Below are positions 3,583-37,547 of a stretch of 37,547 bases of DNA, piece after piece. A program made the position numbers and the translations under genes. The DNA comes from a virus (Duplodnaviria; Heunggongvirae; Uroviricota; Caudoviricetes), in IMG/VR virus record IMGVR_UViG_2724679539_000004; one strand, 5' to 3'. Numbering within the stretch: position 1 is the first letter of the stretch; every line of letters begins with the position of its first letter. The notes under the pieces are model-generated. The model saw nothing but the letters and a program-made list of their open reading frames with translations. It made no database searches and was not told the origin of the DNA.

Positions 3583-3824
3583 CCATTCTGGATTATATCG
3601 CTGCCAATCCGGGGTGTAGCGGTGGAGAAATCGCCGCAGCACTGAATACCCCAACCACAGCCATTAATGCGGAGTTACGCCGACTCTGGCGCAGCGGTTC
3701 AGTCATAAGAAAAGAGCGCAAAACAGGCGGTCGCTTTTCTTACCAGATAAACCCGATGCCGTTCGGGTGCGGCAATCCACTTACCAACATGTTTAACCAG
3801 CTACTGAAGGAAGCCAGAGCATGA
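3579..3824 (+). CDS. Small putative winged-helix DNA-binding protein
   Basis: 81 aa; GCSGGEIAAALNTPTTAINAELRRLWRSGSV resembles wHTH recognition region; ATGA coupled. Confidence 0.45.
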   Translation: MTILDYIAANPGCSGGEIAAALNTPTTAINAELRRLWRSGSVIRKERKTGGRFSYQINPMPFGCGNPLTNMFNQLLKEARA

Positions 3825-4120
3825 GCACCATCAACCACCAGAAGCTACGCGAACTGGCATTTGCCCTGCAACGAATGGCAACGCCTCAAAAATTACTGGC
3901 ATTTCGCGCAATGCTCTCGCCGTCTGCTGTGCTGGCACTGCTGGATCAGCTGGAGCACGCCAGAACCACGGCTCCTGCCATTCGCCTCACGCTCCATCAT
4001 GAAATCGCTGATTTCTGCGCAACGCTGGGGGCACCTGGCGAACCGGAAACGCCGGAAGCAATGCAGCAAGAGCTGCTGCAACGCATCGATAACGTTTTTG
4101 ATTTTTTTCTGAACCAGTAA
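3821..4120 (+). CDS. Hypothetical protein with Ea22/Ead-like N-terminal motif
   Basis: 99 aa; N-terminus MSTINHQKLRELA and LALLDQLE motif shared with the two paralogs at 9388 and 9930. Confidence 0.5.
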   Translation: MSTINHQKLRELAFALQRMATPQKLLAFRAMLSPSAVLALLDQLEHARTTAPAIRLTLHHEIADFCATLGAPGEPETPEAMQQELLQRIDNVFDFFLNQ

Positions 4121-4242
4121 GAAACCAGAACATGCACACACAAAAAAACCGCTTGCCATGCCTCAATCGGTCAGGTTACATTTCCGCTGCACCTCATAAA
4201 ACGGGTGCCGGGATTCTCAACCCGATACAGAGCAAAGCGCAT

Positions 4243-4263
4243 AACCGCGCAAGCGGTTTTTTT
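4243..4263 (+). terminator. Rho-independent terminator-like hairpin (ACCGC-GCAA-GCGGT + T7)
   Basis: GNRA-loop hairpin followed by TTTTTTT; perfect 15-bp inverted partner AAAAAAACCGCTTGC at 4142-4156. Confidence 0.5.
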
Positions 4264-4442
4264 GTGCGTACTGTATTGCCACGTCTTTTTCGCGTCAGAA
4301 TTATGGCGGGGCGTACGGGGCCGACTTCGGTCGGGCCGGATTCTTTGCTCTCCGGTGTTGAGAACCCTGTACGTCTCGCCACCCCGAGATTCTCAACTCT
4401 GGATGGTGAGTTATTTCTATCACCGAGCAAAGAGGCCACACC

Positions 4443-4673
4443 ATGGCAGACCGCAAACAGCACCGCGCTATCGCGGAGCGTCGTCACATCCAGACTGAAA
4501 TCAACCGCAGACTTTCCCGCGCATCACGCGTCGCGCAAATCATGCACATCAATATGCTGCATGAGCGCAGCCACGCACTATCAAACATTTATTCCGCCTC
4601 TGTTTTCAGCTATCTGGCGGATGATCTGCACGAGCTTCAACAGCTCATCCAGCAGCAAAACAAACTCCATTAA
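4443..4673 (+). CDS. Hypothetical protein (76 aa)
   Basis: ORF with aagagg SD 9 nt upstream; preferred over overlapping low-complexity 205-aa ORF. Confidence 0.45.
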   Translation: MADRKQHRAIAERRHIQTEINRRLSRASRVAQIMHINMLHERSHALSNIYSASVFSYLADDLHELQQLIQQQNKLH

Positions 4674-4745
4674 TTCCTGTTCCGGGCCTTTCCTGCACCT
4701 TGCGGCGGGAGGCCTTCGCACATCTGTAGTAAAGAGAATTGCAGC

Positions 4746-5135
4746 ATGATTGACGCTCATGACTTCACAAGATGGGTGCGCACACAGGACACCCGTCTGG
4801 CTCCCGTTCTTCAGGGGTTATTTGATCTCTACATCCGTGGTCGTGACAACAGAGCACGCACCACAAAACCGGAGAATGCAGACACCCTTTATTTCACAGT
4901 AGACGACTGCTACCGCGTGGACTTCACACCACACGGACTGGCGTTGCACTGCCTGACACCGCACGGCGAATCACTGCTGGCGTATTACGACTCCCCGGCC
5001 TCCGTATTTGCAGCAATGCTGGCGCATCGCACTGCTGGCGGGTGTGCCTCGCTGAGTGAATACACCGCTGAATTTAACCGCCTTTCCGCCCTCTTCTCGC
5101 AGGAGTGGCAGCGCGTGACGGGATACCAGCCATGA
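4746..5135 (+). CDS. Hypothetical protein (129 aa) translationally coupled to A
   Basis: Stop TGA overlaps ATG of A (ccATGAgt). Confidence 0.55.
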   Translation: MIDAHDFTRWVRTQDTRLAPVLQGLFDLYIRGRDNRARTTKPENADTLYFTVDDCYRVDFTPHGLALHCLTPHGESLLAYYDSPASVFAAMLAHRTAGGCASLSEYTAEFNRLSALFSQEWQRVTGYQP

Positions 5136-7972
5136 GTGCGTTTGCATGGAGCTGGAATGAACCACGACCAGCTATTGATCCGGCCAGATTTACGGAGCGC
5201 AGGCAGGAAACTGAAACCGACCTGCAACGCGCCATCCGTTACTACCTTGAGGCGGACAAAAGGGCACAGAAAGAACAGGAAGCGAAGGAAGAAGCCTTTT
5301 TCGCACAATCCGCCATGGGTAAAAAACTCATGGCATCCCTTGAGGAAGCCGGACAGCGTGAAAAGCTGGCACAGAGCATCATCAGTAAGCGCCGGGCAAC
5401 AGAACAAGACCCGGTAGCCCGTGCCTTTGCCACACTGAAGGCGCTTCCCGTTTATCTGCGAGAACCTCTGAGCCGCCACCTCTCTTTCCTGCGCAAGAAG
5501 CAGGAAGCCGATCGTCAGAAAGGCAAAAAGAGCTGGCAGGCGGAACGCTATGCACGCGGAACCCTGCGCAAAATATTCGAACGTCTGGACCGCACCGACA
5601 GCCGCTGGCTGACACCGGGTTATCGCTCCCTTGCCGGACGCGAACGCCTGGACGATTTGCTTTACCTGCCGCAGCTCAACAAACACCAGATACAGACGCT
5701 GGCCACCATGACAGCGGCGATGTTCAGCAGCACCTTCGAAAAACTCTGCGATGGCTTTGACGCGACTGATGGCGAACTGACCATGGATGTAACGCTGAAG
5801 GCGTATCAGATGCTGGCCCGCATGGCGTTACACCTGCACGCCATGCCTCCACATTATGACGCACTGACAACAGACAAAGACCGGAGGAACGAACCGGACA
5901 CGGAGCTGCTGCCGGGCGCAATCCTTCGCCTGACCTGTGCGGAATGGTGGAAACGCAAACTGTGGCTGTTACGTTGCGAGTGGAGAGAAGAACAACTCCG
6001 CGCCGCCTGTCTGGTTTCCAGAAAAACATCACCCTATCTGAGCCAGGACGCGTTAAGCGAGTTTCGCGCACAGCGCGAGAAAACACGCGATTTCCTGAAA
6101 AGTTTCATACTGGAAAACGAAGACGGGTTCACGATTGATCTCGAGACAGTGTATTACGCGGGAGTAAGTAACCCGGTTCACCGTAAGGCAGAAATGATGG
6201 CCACCATGAAGGGGCTGGAACTTCTGGCCGAAGCCCGTGGCGACAAAGCGGTGTTTCTGACTGTCACCTGCCCGTCAAAATACCACGCCACAACAGAGAA
6301 CGGTCATCCGAATCCCAAATGGAACGGGGCCACCATGCGCGACTCCAGCGATTACCTGGTTAACACGTTTTTTGCGGCGGTCCGCAAAAAACTGAACCGC
6401 GACGGCCTGCGCTGGTATGGCATCCGCACGGTGGAGCCTCACCATGACGGCACCGTGCACTGGCACATGATGGTCTTTGCTCATCCGGAAGAAATCGACA
6501 GCATCGTGGCCATCACCCGCGATATTGCCATTCAGGAAGACCGCCACGAGCTGGGCAATGATATTACTCCGCGCTTTAAGGTGGAGTATGTCGACGGCTC
6601 AAAAGGCACACCAACCAGCTACATCGCCACCTACATCGGAAAGAACCTGGACAGCCGCGCCGTGGATGGCATCGACCCAAAAACGGGCAAGCCACGCGTT
6701 GACCACGAAACCGGAAAATCAATGGCCGAGAGCGTGGAACGCGCCATCGGCTGGGCGCGCCTTCACCGGGTCCGCCAGTTCCAGTTCTTTGGCATTCCCT
6801 CCCGTCAGGTGTGGCGTGAACTCCGCCGCCTTGCCAGCCAGATGGCACGCAACCCGGAAGGCCCGCAACGGCTGAAGGATGACGCAATGGATGCGGTTCT
6901 TGCTGCCGCTGATGCCGGGTGTTTTGCCACCTACATTGAAAAACAGGGTGGCGTACTTGTTCCGCGCAAGGACTACCTGATTCGCACAGCCTACGACCTC
7001 GCAGATGAGCTGAACGATTACGGCGAACAGAGTGTACAGATTTACGGGATCTGGTCGCCACTCATCGGGGAATCCTCCCGTGTGTGCACGCACCCGGATA
7101 ACTGGAAGCTGGTAAGACGTAAACCGGAAGCGGAAGACAGCACCCACGAAAATGGTTTTGACCTTCAGGGCGGCCCTGCCGCCCCTTGGACTCGTGGCAA
7201 TAACTGTCCCCGTGCACAGGAAACGAACAACAACGGGACAGAACAGCCGGAAGAACGGCCAGCACCGTGGCCGCAGCTCCCTGACGGCGTTGAAGTGAAC
7301 GAATGGATGCGCTCACTGAAACGGCACGAACGCCGGGCGCTGATGCGTTCGCTTCGTGACAAACAGGCAAAAAACAGCAGTGATGAAATGCAGAGCTGGA
7401 CACAGAGCCGCAAACAGCAGCGGCCTTTGCCTGATAACCACGAGTTACTCGCTAAAGAATGGCGGGAGTCTGCTGAATCTCTCGGCCTGCATATCGGTGA
7501 ACAGCAGATGCAGCACCTGTTACGGGGCGGCAGCCTGTACGTTGACGACAGCATCATTGCACCGCAGGGGTTTGAAATTGTACGCAAACCGGATACACGC
7601 CCGGACAGCCGAATCACGCAGCTCTGGCAGCGCCTGAGCCGCAATCACGGCGTAAGCAGCACGGAGATCCGCCATAACCCGGTCGCCAGCTATCTGGAAC
7701 AGCTGGGGGCATCAGACCCCGAAGCCGCCGCACGCCTGGCATCCACACTTCAGCAGGACCAGAACACCATGAAAACCCCTGTTACCGTACTTTCTGACAT
7801 GCTGCGCGCCATCCGTGACGCAGAGCACGCACAGAGAATCAGTGAAACCACTGAACGCGCCAGCCGCAAAGCAGACCTGCTGCGGGGTGGCCTGACCAGC
7901 GGAAACAAAAAACAGACAGAAACGGGACTCACGAATCCCGTAAATGAGCAAAAAACGCGCAGCGATATATGA
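5132..7972 (+). CDS. A: Rolling-circle replication initiator endonuclease (P2 gpA-like, HUH)
   Basis: 946 aa; HUH motif HDGTVHWHMMVF; position after early genes as in P2; longer than P2 A (about 761 aa from memory). Confidence 0.9.
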   Translation: MSAFAWSWNEPRPAIDPARFTERRQETETDLQRAIRYYLEADKRAQKEQEAKEEAFFAQSAMGKKLMASLEEAGQREKLAQSIISKRRATEQDPVARAFATLKALPVYLREPLSRHLSFLRKKQEADRQKGKKSWQAERYARGTLRKIFERLDRTDSRWLTPGYRSLAGRERLDDLLYLPQLNKHQIQTLATMTAAMFSSTFEKLCDGFDATDGELTMDVTLKAYQMLARMALHLHAMPPHYDALTTDKDRRNEPDTELLPGAILRLTCAEWWKRKLWLLRCEWREEQLRAACLVSRKTSPYLSQDALSEFRAQREKTRDFLKSFILENEDGFTIDLETVYYAGVSNPVHRKAEMMATMKGLELLAEARGDKAVFLTVTCPSKYHATTENGHPNPKWNGATMRDSSDYLVNTFFAAVRKKLNRDGLRWYGIRTVEPHHDGTVHWHMMVFAHPEEIDSIVAITRDIAIQEDRHELGNDITPRFKVEYVDGSKGTPTSYIATYIGKNLDSRAVDGIDPKTGKPRVDHETGKSMAESVERAIGWARLHRVRQFQFFGIPSRQVWRELRRLASQMARNPEGPQRLKDDAMDAVLAAADAGCFATYIEKQGGVLVPRKDYLIRTAYDLADELNDYGEQSVQIYGIWSPLIGESSRVCTHPDNWKLVRRKPEAEDSTHENGFDLQGGPAAPWTRGNNCPRAQETNNNGTEQPEERPAPWPQLPDGVEVNEWMRSLKRHERRALMRSLRDKQAKNSSDEMQSWTQSRKQQRPLPDNHELLAKEWRESAESLGLHIGEQQMQHLLRGGSLYVDDSIIAPQGFEIVRKPDTRPDSRITQLWQRLSRNHGVSSTEIRHNPVASYLEQLGASDPEAAARLASTLQQDQNTMKTPVTVLSDMLRAIRDAEHAQRISETTERASRKADLLRGGLTSGNKKQTETGLTNPVNEQKTRSDI

Positions 7973-8014
7973 AGCGCGCACAAAACAGGCAAAAACGGGA
8001 TTTCAGAATCCCGT
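7922..8014. repeat. Two palindromic 20-bp iteron-like repeats flanking the A stop codon, upstream of parM
   Basis: ACGGGActcacgaaTCCCGT (7922-7941) and ACGGGATTtcagAATCCCGT (7995-8014) with shared flanks aaACGGGA...GAATCCCGTAAA. Confidence 0.5.
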
Positions 8015-8048
8015 AAACGATTAATTAATCAACATAAGGAAAAGCGAC

Positions 8049-9008
8049 ATGAAAATTTGTATCGACGACGGCTCCACCAACATCAAGCTGGCATGGACTG
8101 AGAACGGCGAACGCCGCAACGCCATCAGCCCGAACAGCTTCAAGTCGGAATGGTCTGCGCCGTTCGGTGGCACGCAGCCCGCGAACTACATGCTTGATGG
8201 CGTGCGCTATGGTTTTGATCCGGTCAGCGATCGCTTTGTCCAGACGACCGACACGCAATACCAATACAGCGATGTGAATGTCATTGCCATTCATCACGCG
8301 CTGGTCAAATCAGGCATCACGCCACAGGAGGTGGATGTGGTTGTCACCCTGCCACTGAGCGAGTATTTCGACACAAACGCACAGCCGGACATGGCCAACA
8401 TCAACCGCAAAAAAGCGAACGTTATGCGCCCGGTGGAGTACCAGAACGGCGAAGCATTCACTATCCGTAACGTGCGGGTTATGCCTGAATCCATTCCGGC
8501 TGGCTTTAAGGCACTGGCTGACATGAGTCCGTTTGAATCCCTGCTGATTGTGGATTTGGGCGGAACCACGCTGGATGTGGCAAAGGTTCAGGGGCAACTG
8601 GCAGGTATCAGCCAGGTGTTTTGCGATCCACACGTAGGCGTTTCTCTGATGGCCGATGCCGTACTGTCGGTGATGGCCACTAACGGTATGCGCACCAGTC
8701 ACCACATCGCCAATACCATTATCGAACATCGCCATGATGAAGCCTGGCTGCGCCAGCACATCCACAATGACGCGCATTACGCCAGCCTGATGGCGGTTAT
8801 TCGTGAAAAGGAAGAAACACTGAAACAACGCGTGATCCGCGCGCTGGCGGTTTTTTCGGGTTACGGGCGGGTGATGGTTGTCGGTGGCGGGGCGGAGATT
8901 GTGGCACCCGCTATCCGCGAAGCCTGCGGAGTTAATGCGACTTTCATCGCGGACGGGGTGCCACAGTTTGCTCTGGTTAATGGGCTGTACGCAATGGACA
9001 AGGAGTAA
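8049..9008 (+). CDS. parM: ParM/StbA-like actin-type segregation ATPase
   Basis: 319 aa; N-terminus MKICIDDGSTNIKLAW...ISPNSFKSEW and YQYSDVNVIAIHHAL closely parallel plasmid R1 ParM as recalled; LIVDLGGTTLDV and VMVVGGGAEIVAP actin-fold motifs. Confidence 0.8.
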   Translation: MKICIDDGSTNIKLAWTENGERRNAISPNSFKSEWSAPFGGTQPANYMLDGVRYGFDPVSDRFVQTTDTQYQYSDVNVIAIHHALVKSGITPQEVDVVVTLPLSEYFDTNAQPDMANINRKKANVMRPVEYQNGEAFTIRNVRVMPESIPAGFKALADMSPFESLLIVDLGGTTLDVAKVQGQLAGISQVFCDPHVGVSLMADAVLSVMATNGMRTSHHIANTIIEHRHDEAWLRQHIHNDAHYASLMAVIREKEETLKQRVIRALAVFSGYGRVMVVGGGAEIVAPAIREACGVNATFIADGVPQFALVNGLYAMDKE

Positions 9009-9012
9009 ACCA

Positions 9013-9324
9013 ATGACGACACCAACCAGACGGATAAGTTTCTATCTGAAGCCTGTGGCCGTCAAGAACGAAAGCGAAGCATGCGCCTGGCTGGACAGCC
9101 TTACACCAGAAGCCCGCAAAAGCGGCCAACGCGTGGCTTTTCTGGCCGGGCTGGCACTTCTGAAAATGAATCCAGCAGAGGCTTACCGACTGGCTGCATG
9201 GGCTGACGATGAGGCGTTATCAGTGACACAAACCAGGACAGAATGCCCCGCGTCACAGCCAGTATCAACCGCACAGATAACCAGTCAGATGGCCGGAAAT
9301 ATCCGGGCGTTATTTCCCGAATAA
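9013..9324 (+). CDS. parR: ParR/StbB-like centromere-binding adaptor
   Basis: 103 aa; RRISFYLKPVAV...AFLAGLALLKMNP...IRALFPE parallels R1 ParR as recalled; directly downstream of parM. Confidence 0.6.
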   Translation: MTTPTRRISFYLKPVAVKNESEACAWLDSLTPEARKSGQRVAFLAGLALLKMNPAEAYRLAAWADDEALSVTQTRTECPASQPVSTAQITSQMAGNIRALFPE

Positions 9325-9387
9325 CACAACATCAGGGCGCATCCGCCCTGATCTCCACCTCAGAACATAAACAAGGAGACCGACTTA

Positions 9388-9933
9388 ATGAGCGAAATCA
9401 ACTATCAGGCACTGCGTGAGTTAGCAAAACAGGCAACACAGGGCGAATGGGTCGCATTTATTTCGCCGGGCAAATACGGCACGTACGCCGTGCACACACC
9501 AGGAGATAATCATCACGGAGATATTGTCGACTGGCCTGGATTCGACGGACAGAAAAACGCAGAGAACAACGCTCGTTATATCGCAGCTTTCAACCCTGAA
9601 GTAGTGCAGGCGCTGTTGGATGAACGAGAAGCCCAAAGCAAACGCATTGCAGAGCTGGAGGCTAATTTCACGGTGCTGGCAGTGGAGAATGCCTCAATGA
9701 AGCTGTTTATCAGGGGCTGTTGCTATGTATTTGATGGAGAGCAGGATGAAATATCTGACGCGTATATCTGCGCAACAGACGGAGGAATGCCACAAACCCC
9801 AGCCACCGACGCTTTCCTGGCTGAAGTGCGGGCGCAGGGCGTGGAGATGTTTGCGGAGTGTGCATACACACTTGAACATCATGATCACGCAGTAGCTTTT
9901 GCCGCCGAGCTACGTAAAGGAGGCAGTCAGTGA
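9388..9933 (+). CDS. Ea22/Ead-like protein
   Basis: 181 aa; MSEINYQALRELAKQATQGEW N-terminus typical of Ead/Ea22 family; coiled-coil ALLDEREAQSKRIAELE. Confidence 0.6.
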   Translation: MSEINYQALRELAKQATQGEWVAFISPGKYGTYAVHTPGDNHHGDIVDWPGFDGQKNAENNARYIAAFNPEVVQALLDEREAQSKRIAELEANFTVLAVENASMKLFIRGCCYVFDGEQDEISDAYICATDGGMPQTPATDAFLAEVRAQGVEMFAECAYTLEHHDHAVAFAAELRKGGSQ

Positions 9934-10469
9934 GCAAAATTGACTATCAGGCACTACAAATGGCAGCAGAACGTGCAATTCCGGCAATGGAACGCCTGTT
10001 AATATTGCCAGTTGATGATGATTTGTTAAGCGAACAGGAACTTAAAGATTACGGTGTGGATATTGACGCGATCAACACCTTCAGACTTCTGGCTGGACCG
10101 GAAGACATGCTGGCACTGCTGGATGAACTGGAAATAGCAAAAAAGCGCATCGCTGAACTGGAAAAAATCGCCACTGACTATGCACTTAAATTCCAGAAAG
10201 CACAGGACGCATTAAAGTATGCCGCTTTGCCGCATAGCCGGACGGCGCAACAAACAAATAATCTTGCAGTATCGCTTCCGGACATAAGCGAATATTTCAT
10301 TAATGACGTATTTCAGCCCTTGCGATACGAGCGGGATGTTGAAAGAGCCATCATAAAGGCTGGCGGAAAAGCATTGTGGCAGGAGAAACACGAGGACAGA
10401 ACGCATCAGTCATGCGATGTAAATTGTGGATGGTTTAGCCCACTGACGACAGATAAAAATAACACCTGA
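9930..10469 (+). CDS. Ea22/Ead-like paralog
   Basis: 179 aa; MSKIDYQALQMAAERA and ALLDELEIAKKRIAELE; ATGA-type overlap with upstream paralog. Confidence 0.55.
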   Translation: MSKIDYQALQMAAERAIPAMERLLILPVDDDLLSEQELKDYGVDIDAINTFRLLAGPEDMLALLDELEIAKKRIAELEKIATDYALKFQKAQDALKYAALPHSRTAQQTNNLAVSLPDISEYFINDVFQPLRYERDVERAIIKAGGKALWQEKHEDRTHQSCDVNCGWFSPLTTDKNNT

Positions 10470-10959
10470 TCCCCCTCAAACCAGGGCGATAATCGCACAT
10501 CGCCCTGCTGCACAATAGTGCACAAATTTGCACAATTTTTTTGAACGAATTTTTGCCCTTCCAGCCCGCGTGGCGGCTGGATCCGTCAAGGATCCGTGCG
10601 TGCACAAAAAAACGCGCTTTTTCTGCGCGCAGGTGACGGGGGAACAGCCCGCGTTTCAGGGGGTAAATAGCATTCCCTGAGCGATGTCGCAGCGACACAA
10701 CAGAATGGCTGTATTTCTCACGCTGAGCGTGAAAAAGACGTAAGGGTTTTTGATTTGATGGGTTGAAAGGTAAGGCCGTCAAAATCGCACTGAGGCGGCG
10801 AGAACATACAGTCAACGCGGTGGGATTGCGTAAGAGTCTGACCGTCGATGGTGGCGATAAACTGGAAGGCGTCGTGAAATTATCTGATTGATACAGGAGC
10901 TGGAGAGTCGGGGCATAAATTTTTTATGCCCCGGCGAAGCAGCAGACAAGCGAAGCGCG
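10470..10959. other. cos-containing region between cargo and Q (exact cohesive-end site not identified)
   Basis: Position equivalent to P2 cos; GC-rich elements (gcgtggcggctgg, ggtgacgggggaacagc) resemble but do not match P2/186 cos as recalled. Confidence 0.3.
10910..10932. terminator. Bidirectional hairpin terminator downstream of Q
   Basis: GGGGCATAAA-ttt-TTTATGCCCC perfect palindrome just 3' of Q. Confidence 0.5.
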
Positions 10960-12006
10960 TCAGGCTGTGGGCTGGGTGTCTAACAGTGCGTAAGGGTTAA
11001 AGCGGATCACCTCTTCGCCCAGCCAGTCATTGATGTGCTTCATGGCCTCCATGACGGGCATCAGCTCGTTAATTGCGTAAACCCGCGCGGCCTTCTCCAC
11101 ATCACCAAACGCACTTTTTTCACCCGGCATCGCCCCCATCAGTTGCGGCGGAACGCGGTGCGCAGCCAGCACATCATCACGGGATGCCGCCTTAACATTC
11201 ATGAACTCATCCTTTGCAGTGATCTGCTGGAACGGCAAAATTTGCACCCCCTCTTTGCCCCCGTTGGGCGCATGAATGAGCACGTTTTTAAACGCACCAC
11301 CACCACGTGCCCCCTGTAGCGTTTCTTTCAGGGAGTCCATGCTTTCGCGGTTTACCTGCGCTGCACCGATGTAGATGATGCACCCGGCGTGGGATCCGTT
11401 GTCGTAATACAGTTTTCTGAACATGTCCGCCGAATGAGACAGGCTGGCCGAGAGTAATGCGCCGAGATATTCCGGCATGCCGTAGATTTCCTGGTTAATG
11501 TCAGGATTCATCAGGTGGCACACTTTGCCAGGGCGAAACTGAAACGCATCCTTGCCATCCTGCACATACCACCATGATTCAAGATCGCTTCCGCGTCGCA
11601 TGTATTTCGCCAGTGCGTGCCGTAATTTAAGCGGTTCGCCGAGCATATTGCTTCGAAGCTCAAGGAATGCGTTACCGAACACAAACCAGTCCAGCGCCAG
11701 CGCCGAGAAATCCTGCCGGGAAAGCAGCGGGTGCGGGATGTAGCAGCCGAGTAATACATTGCGCTTAAAGTAAAGCGCAGACTGATGCCAGGACGTTTGC
11801 CGGGCAGCTCTTGCCAGACCGTACCAGTCTACCGGGGTTTCATACCACCGCCCGTTATCAGCACAGTACATATTGTCCAGCAGATCATGCCCGGTCAGGC
11901 GATAAGGACCATCAAATGTGAATGCACTGAGCGATGATTCTTTCCTGAGCGCATCAGCGAGATCAATGCGTGAACTCATGCGCACTTTTTTATTTTTTCT
12001 GCTCAT
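10960..12006 (-). CDS. Q: Portal protein (P2 gpQ-like)
   Basis: 348 aa; size/position match P2 Q; ATGA overlap with P stop. Confidence 0.85.
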   Translation of the reverse strand: MSRKNKKVRMSSRIDLADALRKESSLSAFTFDGPYRLTGHDLLDNMYCADNGRWYETPVDWYGLARAARQTSWHQSALYFKRNVLLGCYIPHPLLSRQDFSALALDWFVFGNAFLELRSNMLGEPLKLRHALAKYMRRGSDLESWWYVQDGKDAFQFRPGKVCHLMNPDINQEIYGMPEYLGALLSASLSHSADMFRKLYYDNGSHAGCIIYIGAAQVNRESMDSLKETLQGARGGGAFKNVLIHAPNGGKEGVQILPFQQITAKDEFMNVKAASRDDVLAAHRVPPQLMGAMPGEKSAFGDVEKAARVYAINELMPVMEAMKHINDWLGEEVIRFNPYALLDTQPTA

Positions 12007-33227: not shown

Positions 33228-33384
33228 AGCTTCAGCCCCTTGTATCCGTTAAATGATTCGGCAACAATCATCACCCACCACGCGCGTAATCTCACCCCTG
33301 CGCCATTCTCCCGCCACGGCGACAACAAAAAGCAGTAACCCCCTCCGCACGCACATGCGACCATGCCGCACAGGGAGGGAACAG

Positions 33385-34494
33385 ATGACCGACACCACCA
33401 TGCAATTGCTCAGTCAGGGCACAGACCCCGTGAAAATGCCGGATTTTGATATTCTCGCGGAGGGTAAAACGCTGTCAGGCGTGGCAGAGCGCCTGATGAG
33501 TCTGTCACTGACCGACAACCGGGGATTTGAAGCGGACCAGCTCACCATCACGCTGGATGATGCGGATGGTCAGTTGCAGCTACCGCCACGGGGCGCGCGC
33601 CTGACGGTTCTCATTGGCTGGAAAGGAGAACCGCTGACAGAAAAAGGCACTTACATTGTTGATGAAATCGCTCACGAAGGACCGCCGGACAGGCTGACTG
33701 TTTCAGCCAGAAGCGCAGATTTTCGGGATGAATTTAACGTTAAACGTGAGGTGTCCTGGCATGATGTGACCGTTGAGCGTGTGGTATCCGCCATCGCTCA
33801 TCGGTACGGTCTGAAACCGCAAATCAGCGAAATGCTGATGGATATCGAAATCGACCACGCCGACCAGACCGAAGAAAGCGACATGTCCTTTCTTACGCGC
33901 ATGGCGGAAATGCTGGGCGCAATCACCACGGTAAAAAGCGGTAATCTGTTATTCATCATGCCCGGCGGTGGCGTGAACGCACAGGGCCAGCCGTTGCCAT
34001 CGTTCGCCATCACACGCAGCAGCGGCGATCGCCATCAGTTCCGCATTGCGGACCGCGAAGCGTATACGGGGGTACGCGCCTACTGGCTTGATCTTAATTA
34101 CGGGAAAAAGAAAAAAGTCAGCGTGAAACGCCGCAAACCGCCAAAACCCAAAAAGGAGAAAAGCAGCAGCCGTGAAGGTGATTATATGGAAGGCGCGGAA
34201 GGCAATGTGTTTGTGTTACGCAAGACCTATCAGAACGAACAGGCAGCAAGACGCGCAGCGGCGGCAAAGTGGCAGCAACTACAACGCGGAGCCGCATCAT
34301 TCTCCATCACGCTGGCGCGTGGACGTGCAGAACTCTACCCCGAAATGCATGGTACGGTAACAGGATTTAAAAGCGAGATTGATAATCAGGACTGGATCAT
34401 TGCAAAAGCCGAGCACACCATTGATAACAGTGGCTTTACCACGCAGCTTGAGCTTGAGGCAAAAATCCCGGAATGGATAGCGGAAACAGAGTGA
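33385..34494 (+). CDS. D: Tail protein D (late control gene D family)
   Basis: 369 aa from ATG 33385 (SD gggaggga); position upstream of ogr. Confidence 0.8.
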   Translation: MTDTTMQLLSQGTDPVKMPDFDILAEGKTLSGVAERLMSLSLTDNRGFEADQLTITLDDADGQLQLPPRGARLTVLIGWKGEPLTEKGTYIVDEIAHEGPPDRLTVSARSADFRDEFNVKREVSWHDVTVERVVSAIAHRYGLKPQISEMLMDIEIDHADQTEESDMSFLTRMAEMLGAITTVKSGNLLFIMPGGGVNAQGQPLPSFAITRSSGDRHQFRIADREAYTGVRAYWLDLNYGKKKKVSVKRRKPPKPKKEKSSSREGDYMEGAEGNVFVLRKTYQNEQAARRAAAAKWQQLQRGAASFSITLARGRAELYPEMHGTVTGFKSEIDNQDWIIAKAEHTIDNSGFTTQLELEAKIPEWIAETE

Positions 34495-35378: not shown

Positions 35379-35576
35379 ATGACGCAAAATGTACGATGCA
35401 AAAATTGCAACAAACTACTTGCCCGCGCCTCATTTCACTACATTGAAATAAAATGTCCGCGCTGCAAAACACTTAACCAGATAACGAGAGCCATCGAGCA
35501 CCCCACACACATGAGGAGTTATGACCGTGGGGATCGCAATCCAGCACCAACCAGCACATACACCGGAACACACTAA
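35379..35576 (+). CDS. com: Com-like zinc-finger translational activator
   Basis: 65 aa; VRCKNCNKLL...HYIEIKCPRCKTLN matches phage Mu Com zinc finger as recalled; overlaps start of downstream methyltransferase. Confidence 0.7.
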   Translation: MTQNVRCKNCNKLLARASFHYIEIKCPRCKTLNQITRAIEHPTHMRSYDRGDRNPAPTSTYTGTH

Positions 35577-36312
35577 GGTTTATCAGACTGACAATGCCAC
35601 GCTCTGTCGTGGGAATGCGCTGGAAATATTGCCGCTGATTGAGCCAGAAAGCATTGATGCCTTAATCACTGACCCACCTTACAGTTCGGGTGCGACACAC
35701 AAGGCCGGACGCACCAACCAGGGCAGCCATGCAAAATATCTGAACGGCGAGAACCTTCACCGCTTTGATGGGTTCGCGGGTGAAAACATGGACGCCCGTT
35801 CGTGGGCTTACTGGACACAATTATGGATGGCACAGGCACACCGCGCAGTCAGGCCGGGCGGTTATGCCCTGGTATTTACTGACTGGCGACAACTACCAGC
35901 TTTAACCGATGCGTTTCAGGCCAGTGGCTTTACATGGCGCGGCATCATTGCGTGGAACAAAGGGAGGGGGTCACGAACACCACATACCGGGTATTTCCGG
36001 CATCAGTGCGAATACATCGTCTGGGGCAGCAAAGGCCATTTAGATAAATCGCCTTCGGGACCGTTCGACGGCTGCATGACGTTCCCGGTTATCCCGTCAA
36101 AGAAAATGCACCCAACCGGAAAACCAGAAGAACTAATGGCGGAACTGGTCAGGACTGTGAATAGTGGCGGAACAGTCCTTGATCCTTTTATGGGGTCAGG
36201 GACAACGGGTGTGGCTGCACTGAAAGCAGGACGCAAATTTATTGGTATAGAAACCAGTGATCATTATTTTGATGTAGCAACACAACGGCTCAAAACGGCG
36301 ATCGAACCATAA
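35521..36312 (+). CDS. DNA methyltransferase, beta-class (DPPY before FxGSGTT)
   Basis: 263 aa; motif IV DPPYSS upstream of motif I FMGSGTTGVAA; CcrM/HinfI-like order, N6-adenine or N4-cytosine. Confidence 0.8.
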   Translation: MTVGIAIQHQPAHTPEHTKVYQTDNATLCRGNALEILPLIEPESIDALITDPPYSSGATHKAGRTNQGSHAKYLNGENLHRFDGFAGENMDARSWAYWTQLWMAQAHRAVRPGGYALVFTDWRQLPALTDAFQASGFTWRGIIAWNKGRGSRTPHTGYFRHQCEYIVWGSKGHLDKSPSGPFDGCMTFPVIPSKKMHPTGKPEELMAELVRTVNSGGTVLDPFMGSGTTGVAALKAGRKFIGIETSDHYFDVATQRLKTAIEP

Positions 36313-36332
36313 GACAAAGCCCGCAATGTTGC
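36311..36332 (+). terminator. Hairpin terminator after methyltransferase
   Basis: AAGCCCGCAA-tg-TTGCGGGCTT. Confidence 0.45.
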
Positions 36333-36350
36333 GGGCTTACTCTACCTCTC

Positions 36351-36373
36351 GAAAATGTGGTCACTGCGTGGAC
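36351..36373. other. Candidate attR core (direct repeat of sequence at 11-33 inside int 3' end)
   Basis: gtggTcactgcgtggacaTA vs gtggAcactgcgtggacaCT; 13-bp identical core, 18/20 match. Confidence 0.3.
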
Positions 36374-36539
36374 ATACGCTGATACAAATCCTTTTATATC
36401 AATAAATTAAATCTTTGTTTTTTTCATCAACAAGGATTTTCACGTTTGTGTTACCTGTTTGAGAACGAGAGTTAACCGGGCAAGTGTGCCATAATCTCGC
36501 CGTCAGGCATACTTACGAAGATTTATGATTTAAGGATAA

Positions 36540-37547
36540 GTGATGATGCAACCTATTTCCGGTACTCCACCACGCCCACCGGATATCAACCAAAATCAAC
36601 CAGCCGGGCCAGGCGAACAACCTTTATCAACACAGCAACGCACTGTACTGGAACGTCTGATAACCCGCCTGACTGCATTAACGAAGCAGCAAAGTGCTGA
36701 AGTATGGGCTGCTGTTAAGCATGATCTTGGTATGAAAAGTGATACTCCGTTGCTCTCACGTCATTTTCCCGCTGCGGAAGTTAATCTTAACCAGCGCCTG
36801 CTGCGTGCTCAGCAAACTCACGTGACCCGCCAATTGTTGTCACAACTGAGTGGGCTGCTCAGTCAGGGGAATAATCGCCAGGCTGTCAGCGATTTCATTC
36901 GCCAGCAATACGGTCAAACCGCGCTGAATCAGCTAACTCCTGAACAGTTAAAAAATGTCCTTACGTTGCTCCAACAAGGCAAACTGGCAATCCCGCAACC
37001 ACAGCAACGCACACCAACTGCTCGCCCGTTGTTACCTGCTGAGCATAATACGTTAAAGCAACTGGTGACTAAACTTGCTGCCGCGACCGGGGAGCCAAGT
37101 AAACAGATCTGGCAATCGATGCTGGAGCTTTCGGGGGTGAAGAACGGTGAACTTATCCCGGCGAAACAATTTACCCATCTTGTGACATGGCTACAGGCTC
37201 GTCAGACTTTGAGTTTGCAAAGTGCACCAACGTTGGAAACGTTGCAAATGGCACTGAAGCAGCCGCTGGAACGGGCTGAACTCACTGAACTGCAACATTA
37301 TGCACAGCAAACCTGGAATGTCCTGCCGCAAATGGCGCTCACGTCATCCCAGGTTCTTGATCTGCTTAATCACGTGTTTTTAAAACGTGCGGAGCGAGAA
37401 AGTGGATTTATCGATCCGCGTAATATTCAGCCATTATTTACCCCTTTCCCTCCACTGATGGATACGTTTAAATCCTTCACCGGGAGTACCGGGTTGGTTT
37501 TAATGGCCTTCTTAATTGTGCTCCTGCTTATCTGGTTGGTGATTTAA
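36540..37547 (+). CDS. flk: Host flagellar regulator Flk-like, C-terminal membrane anchor
   Basis: 335 aa; Gln/Pro-rich; PLLSRHFPAAE and C-terminal LVLMAFLIVLLLIWLVI anchor resemble enterobacterial Flk as recalled. Confidence 0.7.
   Translation: MMMQPISGTPPRPPDINQNQPAGPGEQPLSTQQRTVLERLITRLTALTKQQSAEVWAAVKHDLGMKSDTPLLSRHFPAAEVNLNQRLLRAQQTHVTRQLLSQLSGLLSQGNNRQAVSDFIRQQYGQTALNQLTPEQLKNVLTLLQQGKLAIPQPQQRTPTARPLLPAEHNTLKQLVTKLAAATGEPSKQIWQSMLELSGVKNGELIPAKQFTHLVTWLQARQTLSLQSAPTLETLQMALKQPLERAELTELQHYAQQTWNVLPQMALTSSQVLDLLNHVFLKRAERESGFIDPRNIQPLFTPFPPLMDTFKSFTGSTGLVLMAFLIVLLLIWLVI

Follow-up and report, generated by a model that had tools for sequence, protein, structure and literature searches.

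The two adjacent genes at positions 9388-10469 of the window (i.e., of the whole stretch of 37,547 nt that was analysed), named eadA and eadB here, both belong to the Ead/Ea22 family, whose members are small and modular early phage proteins and non-essential, and comparison of their sequences shows that the pair was evidently assembled by module swapping with lambda-like phages. Most likely, as we infer by analogy, the two products act like lambda Ea22, that is, as oligomeric early accessory proteins. In addition, we identify a small C-terminal module of EadB that P88-like phages keep in the last gene before cos.

Prophage type and position of the pair

To judge from its gene content and alignments, the window is a P88-like prophage (Xuanwuvirus, P2-related). 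Int, a CI-like repressor, Cox and gpA are recognised within it, and the flanks of the pair are 94-98% identical to P88, P88_4B11 and other Xuanwuvirus genomes. The rightward early operon starts with Cox and leads via gpA, parM, parR, eadA and eadB to a terminator-like hairpin and cos, i.e., eadA and eadB are its last two genes. Coordinates are listed in Table 1. In P88_4B11, only 84 bp separate the homologous stop codon from the end of the linear record.

Table 1. Location of the gene pair, its internal elements and its neighbours in the window.
Feature	Position	Strand	Evidence and remarks
orf99, 99 aa	3821-4120	+	conserved early-operon gene of P88-like phages; Ead/Ea22-type N-terminal module
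parM	8049-9008	+	StbA_N 275 bits, ParM_N 231 bits; directly 5' of the pair together with parR
parR/stbB	9013-9324	+	Plasmid_stab_B 82 bits; between parM and eadA
Shine-Dalgarno-like AAGGAG	9374-9379	+	read from the sequence; 8 nt 5' of the eadA ATG
eadA, 181-aa Ead/Ea22-family protein, ATG start	9388-9933	+	ORF; PF13935; phrog_368; WP_046077165
Coupling junction AAGGAGGCAGTCAGTGA	9917-9933	+	Shine-Dalgarno AAGGAGG at 9917-9923, then eadB start over eadA stop
eadB, 179-aa Ead/Ea22-family protein, GTG start	9930-10469	+	ORF; PF13935; WP_046077166
ALLDELE...KRIAELE codons of eadB	10110-10163	+	recombination joint between imported N-terminal and resident C-terminal part
Core of the EadB C-terminal module, residues 112-150	10263-10379	+	constant slot element in P88-like phages
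Terminator-like hairpin GTGCACAAATTTGCAC then AATTTTTTTG	10518-10545	+	consensus scan only; the early transcript may end here, immediately ahead of cos
Portal gene (gpQ homologue)	10960-12006	-	PF04860; right-hand limit of the variable slot

The pair lies inside a variable slot that spans from gpA-parMR to the portal gene. The first-pass annotation had described this location as a cargo slot, which agrees with the gpA-gpQ interval being a documented hotspot of P2-like phages (PMC9122126): the pair sits between the replication endonuclease gene gpA and the portal gene gpQ, adjoins cos and is variable among relatives. Among 63 IMG/VR P88-like loci and the window, we find 27 different arrangements of the slot content. 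Other occupants are small early-type genes, e.g., for a ClpX-type zinc finger protein or an SSB, and P88 itself lacks both eadA and eadB. The GC content of eadB (0.45-0.47) is slightly lower than that of the flanks (0.54-0.57).

A simple, crude consensus scan of the + strand between 7900 and 11000 yields no sigma70-like site. A ParR-regulated promoter 5' of parM could drive the pair in lysogens. Further hairpins are present at 9331-9352 and about 10480-10508; as cassette boundaries they were rejected, since the mapped breakpoints fall within coding motifs instead.

Family membership and coupling of the two genes

Both ORFs exist as initially described, and both products match the Pfam family PF13935 (Ead_Ea22; gathering score 27 bits), EadA with residues 2-105 (E 5.3e-25, 89 bits) and EadB with residues 2-123 (E 1.1e-20, 75.1 bits). 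EadA furthermore matches phrog_368 over its full length (E 8e-52). RefSeq names both 'ead/Ea22-like family protein', and the thousands of homologues of EadA and EadB are all annotated as ead/Ea22-like. For EadA we count 5457 homologues, and its exact sequence (P0001) is found intact on 352 contigs of E. coli and Salmonella.

The family alignments of EadA (A1) and EadB (A2), to the N-terminal parts of which lambda Ea22 aligns, show the typical Ea22 N-terminus, i.e., M/V-S-E/K-I-N/D-x-Q-A-L-R followed by ...LLDE(R/L)E. The motifs quoted earlier for the two proteins are present as ALLDEREAQSKRIAELE in EadA and ALLDELEIAKKRIAELE in EadB. In A1 the N-terminal 100 aa are invariant and the C-terminus is a mosaic, while in A2 an invariant N-terminal part is followed by shuffled C-terminal parts. 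That is, in line with Ea22 proteins, the C-terminal domain is variable and protein-specific, as is also seen with BLASTP. When EadA and EadB are compared with each other, BLASTP reports 36% identity between residues 1-91 and 1-78, respectively (E 1e-7), and no similarity past residue ~91; therefore, the C-terminal halves are unrelated. A common N-terminus with unrelated C-terminal halves is what the first-pass annotation had proposed, and this description holds. On the DNA level, the two gene starts share a 48-nt direct repeat (9389-9436 vs. 9931-9978; 73% identical).

The proposed translational coupling is likewise borne out by the junction, in which the GTG of eadB (9930-9932) overlaps the TGA of eadA (9931-9933) to form GTGA. 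An equivalent junction (CGCAAAGGAGGCARCCAGTGAGC) precedes Ead/Ea22 genes in six other loci regardless of the upstream gene, and via this conserved SD-GTGA junction eadA and eadB would be made as one translationally coupled unit. The junction forces the upstream product to end in ...LRKGG(S/N)Q, and EadA ends in ...FAAELRKGGSQ. Some annotations place the EadB start at Met11, which results in a protein of 169 aa; the GTG start is favoured because of family homology and the Shine-Dalgarno sequence.

Predicted architecture

Both proteins follow one layout, in which an Ead helix or small domain at the N-terminus is followed by a long helix in the centre and by a small C-terminal module that can be swapped. 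EadA starts with the helix MSEINYQALRELAKQA, followed by a small conserved domain (GEWVAFISPG...NARYIAAFNPE, residues ~19-70), a long helix (70-111) and the mosaic C-terminal part (112-181). In EadB, an N-terminal helical module (1-56) leads into a long amphipathic helix (57-106, ALLDELEIAKKRIAELEKIATDYALKFQKAQDALKYAAL), which is followed by a small C-terminal module (112-150, SLPDISEYFINDVFQPLRYERDVERAIIKAGGKALW) and a low-confidence tail (151-179).

The helices were predicted with AlphaFold2 for the monomers based on the family alignments A1/A2. The models have a mean pLDDT of 56.3 for EadA and 63.9 for EadB, and only their helices are moderately confident. The long helix of EadA reaches a pLDDT of 82-85 and the remainder is low, while for EadB values of 70-86 are obtained for residues 1-90, 41-64 for the C-terminal part and below 50 for the tail. 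From lambda Ea22, which forms a tetramer, we infer that the proteins oligomerise via the central helix. A coiled coil had been assigned to both proteins, and here the result is mixed. Long helices are predicted for both, and a crude heptad a/d test backs the assignment for EadB (86% hydrophobic a/d positions, reached by 1.4% of shuffles), but the same test gives no support for a canonical coiled coil in EadA, for which 58% of shuffles do at least as well as the real sequence.

Searching the PDB with Foldseek, both low-confidence models return nothing at E <= 0.001, and the top matches are scattered and meaningless. On the sequence level, neither phmmer searches with EadA and EadB nor a profile built from 13 sequences of the EadB C-terminal module find anything relevant in the PDB. 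None of the three queries matches 8DSX, the C-terminal domain of lambda Ea22, for which lambda Ea22 as control yields 1.2e-51.

The C-terminal module of EadB

The C-terminal module is identical in the proteins Ead196, Ead174 and EadB179 of five P88-like loci (L002-L006), and about half of the 63 IMG/VR P88-like loci carry an EadB-type module. In diverged variants, too, the gene with the module directly precedes the portal gene, and the terminal position is retained even at 42-58% identity. An exhaustive HMMER search with the C-terminal 100 aa of EadB identifies only 22 representatives, all of them uncharacterised phage-type chimeras with the module at the C-terminus. The modularity is also seen in P0152, which joins an EadA-type N-terminus to the EadB C-terminus within one gene of the same slot, and in P0187, whose N-terminus is of the lambda Ea22 type and whose C-terminus is EadB-type.

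A third homologue in the early operon

A third copy had been suggested for orf99. Its position in the early operon and the homology of its N-terminal module are confirmed, but with 20.2 bits against PF13935 it stays below the cut-off of 27 and is by this measure no member of the family. The module covers the first ~48 residues (MSTINHQKLRELA...SPSAVLALLDQLE). They share 50% identity (E 2e-14) with the N-terminus of P0242, whose C-terminus is EadB-type, and over the first 43-46 residues the identity to annotated ead/Ea22-like proteins from Stx and lambdoid phages is 55-61%. The protein matches phrog_4144 (E 3.9e-62), and counterparts with 88-94% identity are found at the same position in P88-like phages.

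Origin of the pair

Next, we consider how the pair arose. Across eadA and the initial ~68 codons of eadB, DNA identity to the tandem Ead pair of a lambdoid prophage is ~80%; in that prophage, the two genes overlap by 4 nt and follow lambda-P-type replication genes. The lineage-resident segment of EadB is its C-terminal ~100 aa. In three single-gene variants of the slot (L005, L006, L113), the match to the window (94-96%) does not begin before 10108-10116, and lambdoid, P22-like and BP9 loci match it only up to 10134. Mapped this way, the breakpoints sit on the MSEINYQAL and ALLDELE/KRIAELE codons. On the DNA level, the resident of the slot is a single Ead protein bearing the EadB-type C-terminal module, and homologous recombination with a lambdoid ea/nin-type region evidently imported the whole of eadA together with the 5' third of an adjacent Ead gene. 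Tandem pairs and single fused genes appear to be related via exchange at the shared helix motif.

This origin differs from that implied by 'tandem paralogs', the term used in the first-pass annotation. A local tandem duplication was rejected, since the two N-terminal coding parts share no more than 73% identity over 48 nt and closer relatives of either one exist elsewhere; instead, the DNA indicates a lambdoid Ead pair segment joined at the ALLDELE codons. An obligate two-gene system was rejected as well. EadB-type genes occur mostly alone or beside other upstream partners and the EadA-N/EadB-C fusion exists.

Function

The reading that we regard as probable is an Ead/Ea22 early accessory pair that was assembled by import and acts like lambda Ea22. 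EadA and EadB would be made early after infection or induction, and their C-terminal modules would bind some host or phage partner. Lytic development would thus be slowed and lysogeny and host survival favoured, rather than a prophage-expressed defence being provided. For lambda and Phi24B, deletion of ea22 shortens the latent period, enlarges the burst, lowers host survival and alters lysogenisation (PMC7093339). Ea22 is a tetramer with a variable, dimeric C-terminal domain (PMC10834534). The Ea22 proteins of lambda and Phi24B, which modulate lysis versus lysogeny, are the only tested relatives (PMC7093339), and a literature search on PF13935, 'Ea22-like' and Ea22 in an anti-phage context found no functional study besides the lambda/Stx work. 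The lambda-like phenotype need not transfer, because the C-terminal modules, which presumably carry the specificity, have no sequence similarity to 8DSX.

The position within the early operon would also suit proteins for early counter-defence or host takeover, where each swappable C-terminal module neutralises a different host factor (e.g., a defence protein, protease or nuclease) and the shuffling results from an arms race. We consider this unlikely. The C-terminal shuffling on a constant scaffold is indeed extreme, the proteins are small, non-enzymatic and predicted to be oligomeric, and in other slot variants a ClpX-zinc-finger-like protein and an SSB are neighbours. However, there is no homology to known anti-defence proteins in Pfam, PHROG or NCBIfam, yeast two-hybrid screens with lambda Ea22 gave no partner (PMC10834534), and growth of lambda delta-ea22 on K-12 is improved rather than impaired (PMC7093339). 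Quite unlikely in our view is the 'effector or sensor' role that had been suggested for the pair, i.e., an anti-phage defence or superinfection exclusion expressed from the prophage, in which the hotspot cargo protects the lysogen and the coiled-coil scaffold presents sensor or effector tails. What speaks for it is the location within the documented P2-like defence hotspot adjoining cos (PMC9122126), the strongly variable slot content, the slightly low GC content of eadB and the many unknown hotspot genes for which a defensive role has been predicted or demonstrated (PMC13586616, PMC9122126). Yet EadA, EadB and orf99 match no PADLOC family at E <= 1, and enzymatic, nucleotide-binding and membrane domains are all absent according to Pfam and NCBIfam, with tails of only ~70-80 aa. 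Unlike P2 old/tin, the pair runs in the same direction as the repressed early operon, follows tightly on it, and the scan found no promoter for it. Family members are also found among the early genes of lambdoid, P22-like and P1-like phage operons, the two genes are no obligate pair, and the alternative slot fillers are small early-type genes.

That the genes are neutral passengers, persisting by linkage and recombinogenic conserved junctions and without selectable function in this phage, strikes us as improbable. Truncated or frameshifted copies in relatives (L017; EadZn_trunc in 5 loci), which imply that the genes are dispensable, would fit such a passenger status, as would the lack of both genes in P88 and the rarity of the pair, which is found at >=80% coverage in 6/5426 complete E. 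coli genomes. The dN/dS values (0.2-0.58 overall) are only moderately low in close comparisons (0.39-0.58), but drop to about 0.2 in more divergent ones; furthermore, exact EadA is intact on its many contigs and the EadB module holds its terminal position in diverged variants. The small size of the two genes, their translational coupling and their location in a hotspot also call to mind a toxin-antitoxin or abortive-infection module, with one product neutralising the other. This is highly improbable: EadA and EadB match no respective family in Pfam, PADLOC or NCBIfam, both belong to one scaffold family, and the modules occur apart (single EadB-type genes, the EadA-N/EadB-C fusion, and EadB with hyp174).

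Beyond the Ea22-like accessory role, a bolder version, to which we give little credence, would see in the Ead scaffold an oligomeric carrier of a general 'plug-and-play' kind, and in the EadB module of ~40 aa (SLP..EYFI..VFQPLRYERDVERAI..AG) a new lineage-fixed binding module. EadA and EadB would form mixed oligomers via the shared helix that show two tails, and would neutralise host defence factors or exclude phages or satellites using the same cos.

Comparison with known systems

Lambda Ea22 is similar to EadA and EadB in several respects. It belongs to PF13935, has a similar size (182 aa vs. 181 and 179) and shares the GTG/ATG-Ser-Glu/Lys-Ile-Asn/Asp-x-Gln-Ala-Leu N-terminus as well as a ...VLxLLDERE motif. 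A short N-terminal part, a long helical middle and a variable C-terminal domain (PMC7093339, PMC10834534) are also common to them, and the gene is located in a non-essential early-operon stretch. Differences concern the C-terminal modules, which have no detectable sequence similarity to 8DSX, the shorter predicted helices of EadA and EadB, and the genomic setting: the host phage is P2-related and not lambdoid, there are two adjacent copies, and these lie at the cos end, behind the genes for replication and partition, instead of between exo and xis.

In lambda as well as in the pair, the C-terminus of the upstream gene carries the embedded SD/start junction. A simple explanation for conserved C-terminal peptides, such as ...RKGG(S/N)Q in this gene class and, in lambda/Stx Ea22, the K/R-G-E motif 'of unknown significance', lies in the Shine-Dalgarno sequence and overlapping start of the next gene. 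A fold shared between the EadB C-terminus and the lambda ...AGIRIKGE tail was rejected, since the same junction accounts for the likeness.

Tandem Ead/Ea22 genes of lambdoid, P22-like and P1-like nin/ea-type regions (L107-L110) show the same 4-nt overlap after replication genes, an identical SD-GTGA junction and about 80-86% DNA identity to window positions 9389-9692 and 9799-10134. They differ in the downstream partner, which has 267 aa and another C-terminal part, and in the phage backbone. The same gpA-gpQ locus with the same flanking genes has been catalogued with one Ead gene (Rousset 2022, PMC9122126), whereas the window has two. The respective protein (WP_001289966, 196 aa, locus L005) is listed there and has the same C-terminal module as EadB; the accessions of the window pair are not among the supplement entries that the search covered, where single-Ead arrangements are found. 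The sole comment in that study touching this arrangement is that a putative partition system is present in about one in four P2-like phages (PMC9122126). In P2, the interval from gpA to cos/gpQ holds orf91, old and tin. Like the Ead genes, orf91 extends the early operon on the same strand, while old and tin, exclusion genes that are large or enzymatic, lie on the opposite strand, have a promoter of their own and mapped transcript starts, and show no sequence relation to Ead.

The family, its three-part modular plan, the hotspot and the RefSeq names of both genes were already known, such that little changes for the field in this regard. The pair provides a concrete case of a P2-related phage gaining lambdoid accessory modules, with crossovers on short conserved coding motifs. 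If a modulation of lysogeny or defence were shown in P2-like phages, Ea22 biology would extend beyond the lambdoid phages.

Gene order and the two Ead genes

The prophage that makes up the window is P88-like (genus Xuanwuvirus, Peduoviridae). While the flanks of the Ead pair match P88, P88_4B11, PhiR44_2 and others at 94-98%, the pair region itself is unmatched. In the linear record of P88_4B11, the cut lies 84 bp past the stop of the homologous gene, which places the Ead genes last before cos. The pair lies within the gpA-gpQ interval, i.e., the hotspot of Rousset et al. 2022 (PMC9122126); the first-pass annotation had spoken of a cargo slot and defence hotspot.

Features of the prophage in the order of the window
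Feature	Position	Strand	Product or placement	Basis
integrase		-	left end of gene order	
CI-like HTH protein		-	after integrase	
Cox, then several small genes, then orf99		+	before gpA	
orf99	3821-4120	+	99 aa	ORF call
isrK Hfq-binding RNA	4189-4263	+		Rfam, 63 bits
C4 antisense RNA	4299-4386	+		Rfam, 78.5 bits
gpA	5105-7972	+		
ParM	8049-9008	+		
ParR/StbB	9013-9324	+		
eadA	9388-9933	+	ATG start, 181 aa	ORF call
eadB	9930-10469	+	GTG start, 179 aa	ORF call
terminator-like hairpin with T-run	10518-10545	+	after EadB	consensus scan
portal and terminase genes		-	right of ~490 bp non-coding DNA after EadB	
tail gene gpD	33253-34494			
DNA methylase N6_N4_Mtase	35521-36312			
weak GemA-like ORF	36540-37547		reaches window end	

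Read from the sequence, the eadB GTG (9930-9932) overlaps the eadA TGA (9931-9933), with AAGGAGG ahead of it at 9917-9923; eadA has AAGGAG 8 nt upstream of its ATG. Against Pfam PF13935 (Ead_Ea22; cut-off 27 bits), EadA scores 89 bits over residues 2-105 and EadB 75.1 bits over residues 2-123. Both the Ead/Ea22 type and the translational coupling described earlier are confirmed. RefSeq labels both "ead/Ea22-like family protein", and each matches several PHROG families of unknown function. Pairwise similarity (36% identity, E 1e-7) is confined to residues 1-91 of EadA and 1-78 of EadB. Since nothing aligns beyond, the C-terminal halves are unrelated, as had been proposed together with the common N-terminus. 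At their starts, the two genes share a 48-nt direct repeat (73% identity). Purifying selection on both is moderate (dN/dS 0.2-0.58), and both are dispensable, because P88 lacks them and truncated copies are seen among relatives.

AlphaFold2 predicts one long helix per protein (EadA 70-111, EadB 57-106); confidence in the models is low (mean pLDDT 56 and 64, respectively), and searching Foldseek with them gave no hit at E <= 0.001. A coiled coil had been described for both proteins; a simple heptad test supports it for EadB (observed a/d hydrophobicity reached by 1.4% of shuffles) but not for EadA.

The third copy reported for the early operon, orf99, stands in part. It scores 20.2 bits, under the PF13935 cut-off, but aligns with P0242, a protein with an EadB-type C-terminus, at 50% identity across 48 residues (E 2e-14). 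Residues 1-43/46 show 55-61% identity to Stx and lambdoid phage proteins annotated as ead/Ea22-like, and P88-like phages carry orf99 at 88-94% identity in unchanged position. Judged by these alignments, its N-terminal module is homologous to the Ead/Ea22 N-terminus. Directly 3' of orf99 and 5' of the gene at 4746-5135 (phrog_3237) are the isrK and C4 RNAs. Because they occupy 4189-4386, the 205-aa 'ORF' at 4132-4749 is probably not a gene; the segment looks like a P1/P7 immI-type c4 RNA control module within a P2-related phage early operon.

The stretch 8049-9324 is a complete actin-type ParM/ParR (StbA/StbB) partition module in an integrated P2-related prophage with integrase. Partition modules occur in about 1/4 of P2-like phages, and plasmid-like maintenance was suggested (PMC9122126). 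Just 5' of parM, a 20-bp palindrome (AAACGGGAYTCANNAATCCCGTAAA) is found twice, ~73 bp apart (7921-7945, 7994-8018). These are candidate parC/ParR-binding sites, and the region is a possible promoter region for parMR, perhaps also for the Ead genes in lysogens. GC-rich hairpins after parR (9331-9352) and after eadB (~10480-10508) have a common arm, CAGGGCG...CGCCCTG, and bracket the variable segment. On the + strand neither is followed by a T-run; they may reflect RNA processing, attenuation or chance. Past gpD, 35521-37547 may be a further accessory region.

Origin of the pair

We mapped breakpoints by BLASTN. In loci with single-gene variants, the parR-side match to the window ends at 9419-9429 (L005, L006), covering the intergenic region and the MSEINYQALRE codons, or at 9659 (L113), reaching the EadA-type N-terminal domain. 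All three match again from 10108-10116 on, starting with the EadB ALLDELE codons. In a lambdoid prophage (L110), a tandem Ead pair with 4-nt overlap lies behind DnaT/lambda-P-type replication genes and is ~80% identical to the window over 9389-9692 and 9799-10134; P22-like phage VSe13 and phage record BP9 match 9898-10134 at 85-86%. From this breakpoint pattern, EadA and the first ~68 EadB codons resemble the lambdoid tandem pair, joined to a resident C-terminal module at the ALLDELE/KRIAELE codons. The DNA crossover points are the same two conserved peptide motifs picked out by the first-pass annotation.

Related fusions are found among homologous proteins. P0152 (191 aa) fills the slot of the pair by itself and joins an EadA-type N-terminal domain to the EadB C-terminus exactly at the ALLDELE/KRIAELE motif; in P0187, a lambda-Ea22-type N-terminus precedes a C-terminus of EadB type. 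Breakpoints and fusions therefore argue against local duplication as source of the pair, and the earlier description as tandem paralogs gives way to a lambdoid-type segment on a resident C-terminus.

We also considered conserved co-occurrence, the absence of which had been named as counting against the proposal. Among the matches listed, an EadB gene comes after the exact EadA sequence in 10/10 places. The 93% EadB variant has a 199-aa EadA variant ahead of it in 6/7 places; in the 7th, that position is taken by a disrupted copy. EadB-type genes, however, mostly occur without EadA. Co-occurrence is thus one-directional, which fits linkage from a single recombination event better than functional dependence.

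Slot variability and the terminal module

We surveyed the slot, i.e., the variable interval from gpA-parMR to the portal gene, using ParR and the portal gene as anchors. Together with the window, 63 IMG/VR loci showed 27 arrangements. In 13 loci the slot contains just one Ead, 196 aa long, whose N-terminal part has a zinc-ribbon-like insert; further arrangements are hyp174 with EadB, diverse small partners next to a ClpX-type zinc-finger protein, XRE-ImmA with h183, and others. Among complete E. coli genomes, the exact pair reaches at least 80% query coverage in 6/5426, with fragment matches in 1224.

The constant element among translated slot proteins is the EadB C-terminal ~100 residues (NRIAELEKIATDYALKFQKAQ...SLPDISEYFINDVFQPLRYERDVERAIIKAGGKALW...), found behind four different N-terminal parts. 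Diverged versions (42-58%) are invariably encoded by the last gene before the portal gene in parMR-carrying P2-like prophages, downstream of hyp174, hyp161, hyp196, ClpX zinc finger or SSB genes. An exhaustive HMMER search with the last 100 residues of EadB yielded 22 representatives only, whose common core is a ~40-aa C-terminal module on many different N-terminal parts, with no relative in PDB or Pfam.

The most frequent alternative first slot gene encodes a small ClpX-type C4 zinc-finger protein of ~110 aa (L003 2489-2823; P88, L024, 1988-2320; L120, L121), mis-named 'carboxylate-amine ligase' in P88 and frameshifted in some genomes. In some P88-like prophages (L002 4189-4713, L099, L103, L106), an additional gene lies beyond cos, towards the portal gene, and forms a second, separate sub-slot. 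It encodes either hyp174x (174-194 aa) or a relative with 234 aa, neither of which matches Pfam, PADLOC or NCBIfam.

A conserved SD/start junction

The junction CGCAAAGGAGGCARCCAGTGAGC(G/A)AAAT is identical ahead of Ead genes in seven loci (window 9913-9935; L002, L004, L107-L110) and comprises a Shine-Dalgarno sequence and a GTG start overlapping a TGA stop. The upstream genes differ (EadA-type, HNH endonuclease, unrelated hypotheticals), and their products all end in ...LRKGG(S/N)Q because the junction sequence encodes that peptide. Lambda ea22 ends in ...atcaaaggagagTGA (AAAGGAG and GTGA; 3' end AAAGGAGAGTGA, L026 ~1045-1060, - strand), followed by a 5-codon remnant, and thus shares the design of the eadA/eadB junction. 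An embedded SD/start junction may hence explain the conserved K/R-G-E end of Ea22 proteins, described as "of unknown significance" (PMC7093339).

Expression and function

The Ead genes follow gpA-parMR on the same strand, and a simple consensus scan of 7900-11000 found no sigma70-like site on the + strand. In contrast to the P2 exclusion genes old and tin, which lie in the same interval on the other strand and have mapped transcript starts of their own, the Ead genes are on the early-operon strand and continue that operon as P2 orf91 does. Elsewhere, family members are found in early operons of lambda (exo-xis interval), a P22-like phage (ea region) and a lambdoid prophage (behind replication genes). 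Gene order thus points to early expression. A P1-like phage carries a further family member.

Pfam gives no domain besides PF13935, and neither protein matches an NCBIfam or PADLOC model; nothing enzymatic or defence-like is detectable, and the effector or sensor role suggested earlier finds no support. Among relatives, lambda and Phi24B Ea22 are the only ones that have been tested. Both are tetramers whose C-terminal domain is dimeric and variable; on deletion of ea22, the latent period is shortened, bursts are larger, fewer hosts survive and lysogenisation changes (PMC10834534, PMC7093339). By analogy, EadA and EadB would be early, oligomeric, non-enzymatic binding proteins that tune lytic development versus lysogeny via partners of their C-terminal modules.

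Among other readings, a role in host takeover or early counter-defence would be compatible with module shuffling and early position but lacks direct support, and we consider it unlikely. Defence expressed from the prophage, for which location is the one argument, is weakened by orientation, the absent defence/effector domains and the non-obligate pairing, which makes it quite improbable. That the genes are neutral passengers agrees with their rarity and with pseudogenes; the conserved terminal module does not fit, and we regard this as very unlikely. Each part occurs independently of the other, which contradicts a toxin-antitoxin pair and leaves it hardly credible.

EadA and EadB are a new combination within a known, already annotated family and a known hotspot. 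The junction reading offers a simple account of conserved C-terminal peptides in the Ead/Ea22 gene class. The concrete gain is a map of how lambdoid and P2-related phages exchanged modules, together with a cos-proximal C-terminal module.
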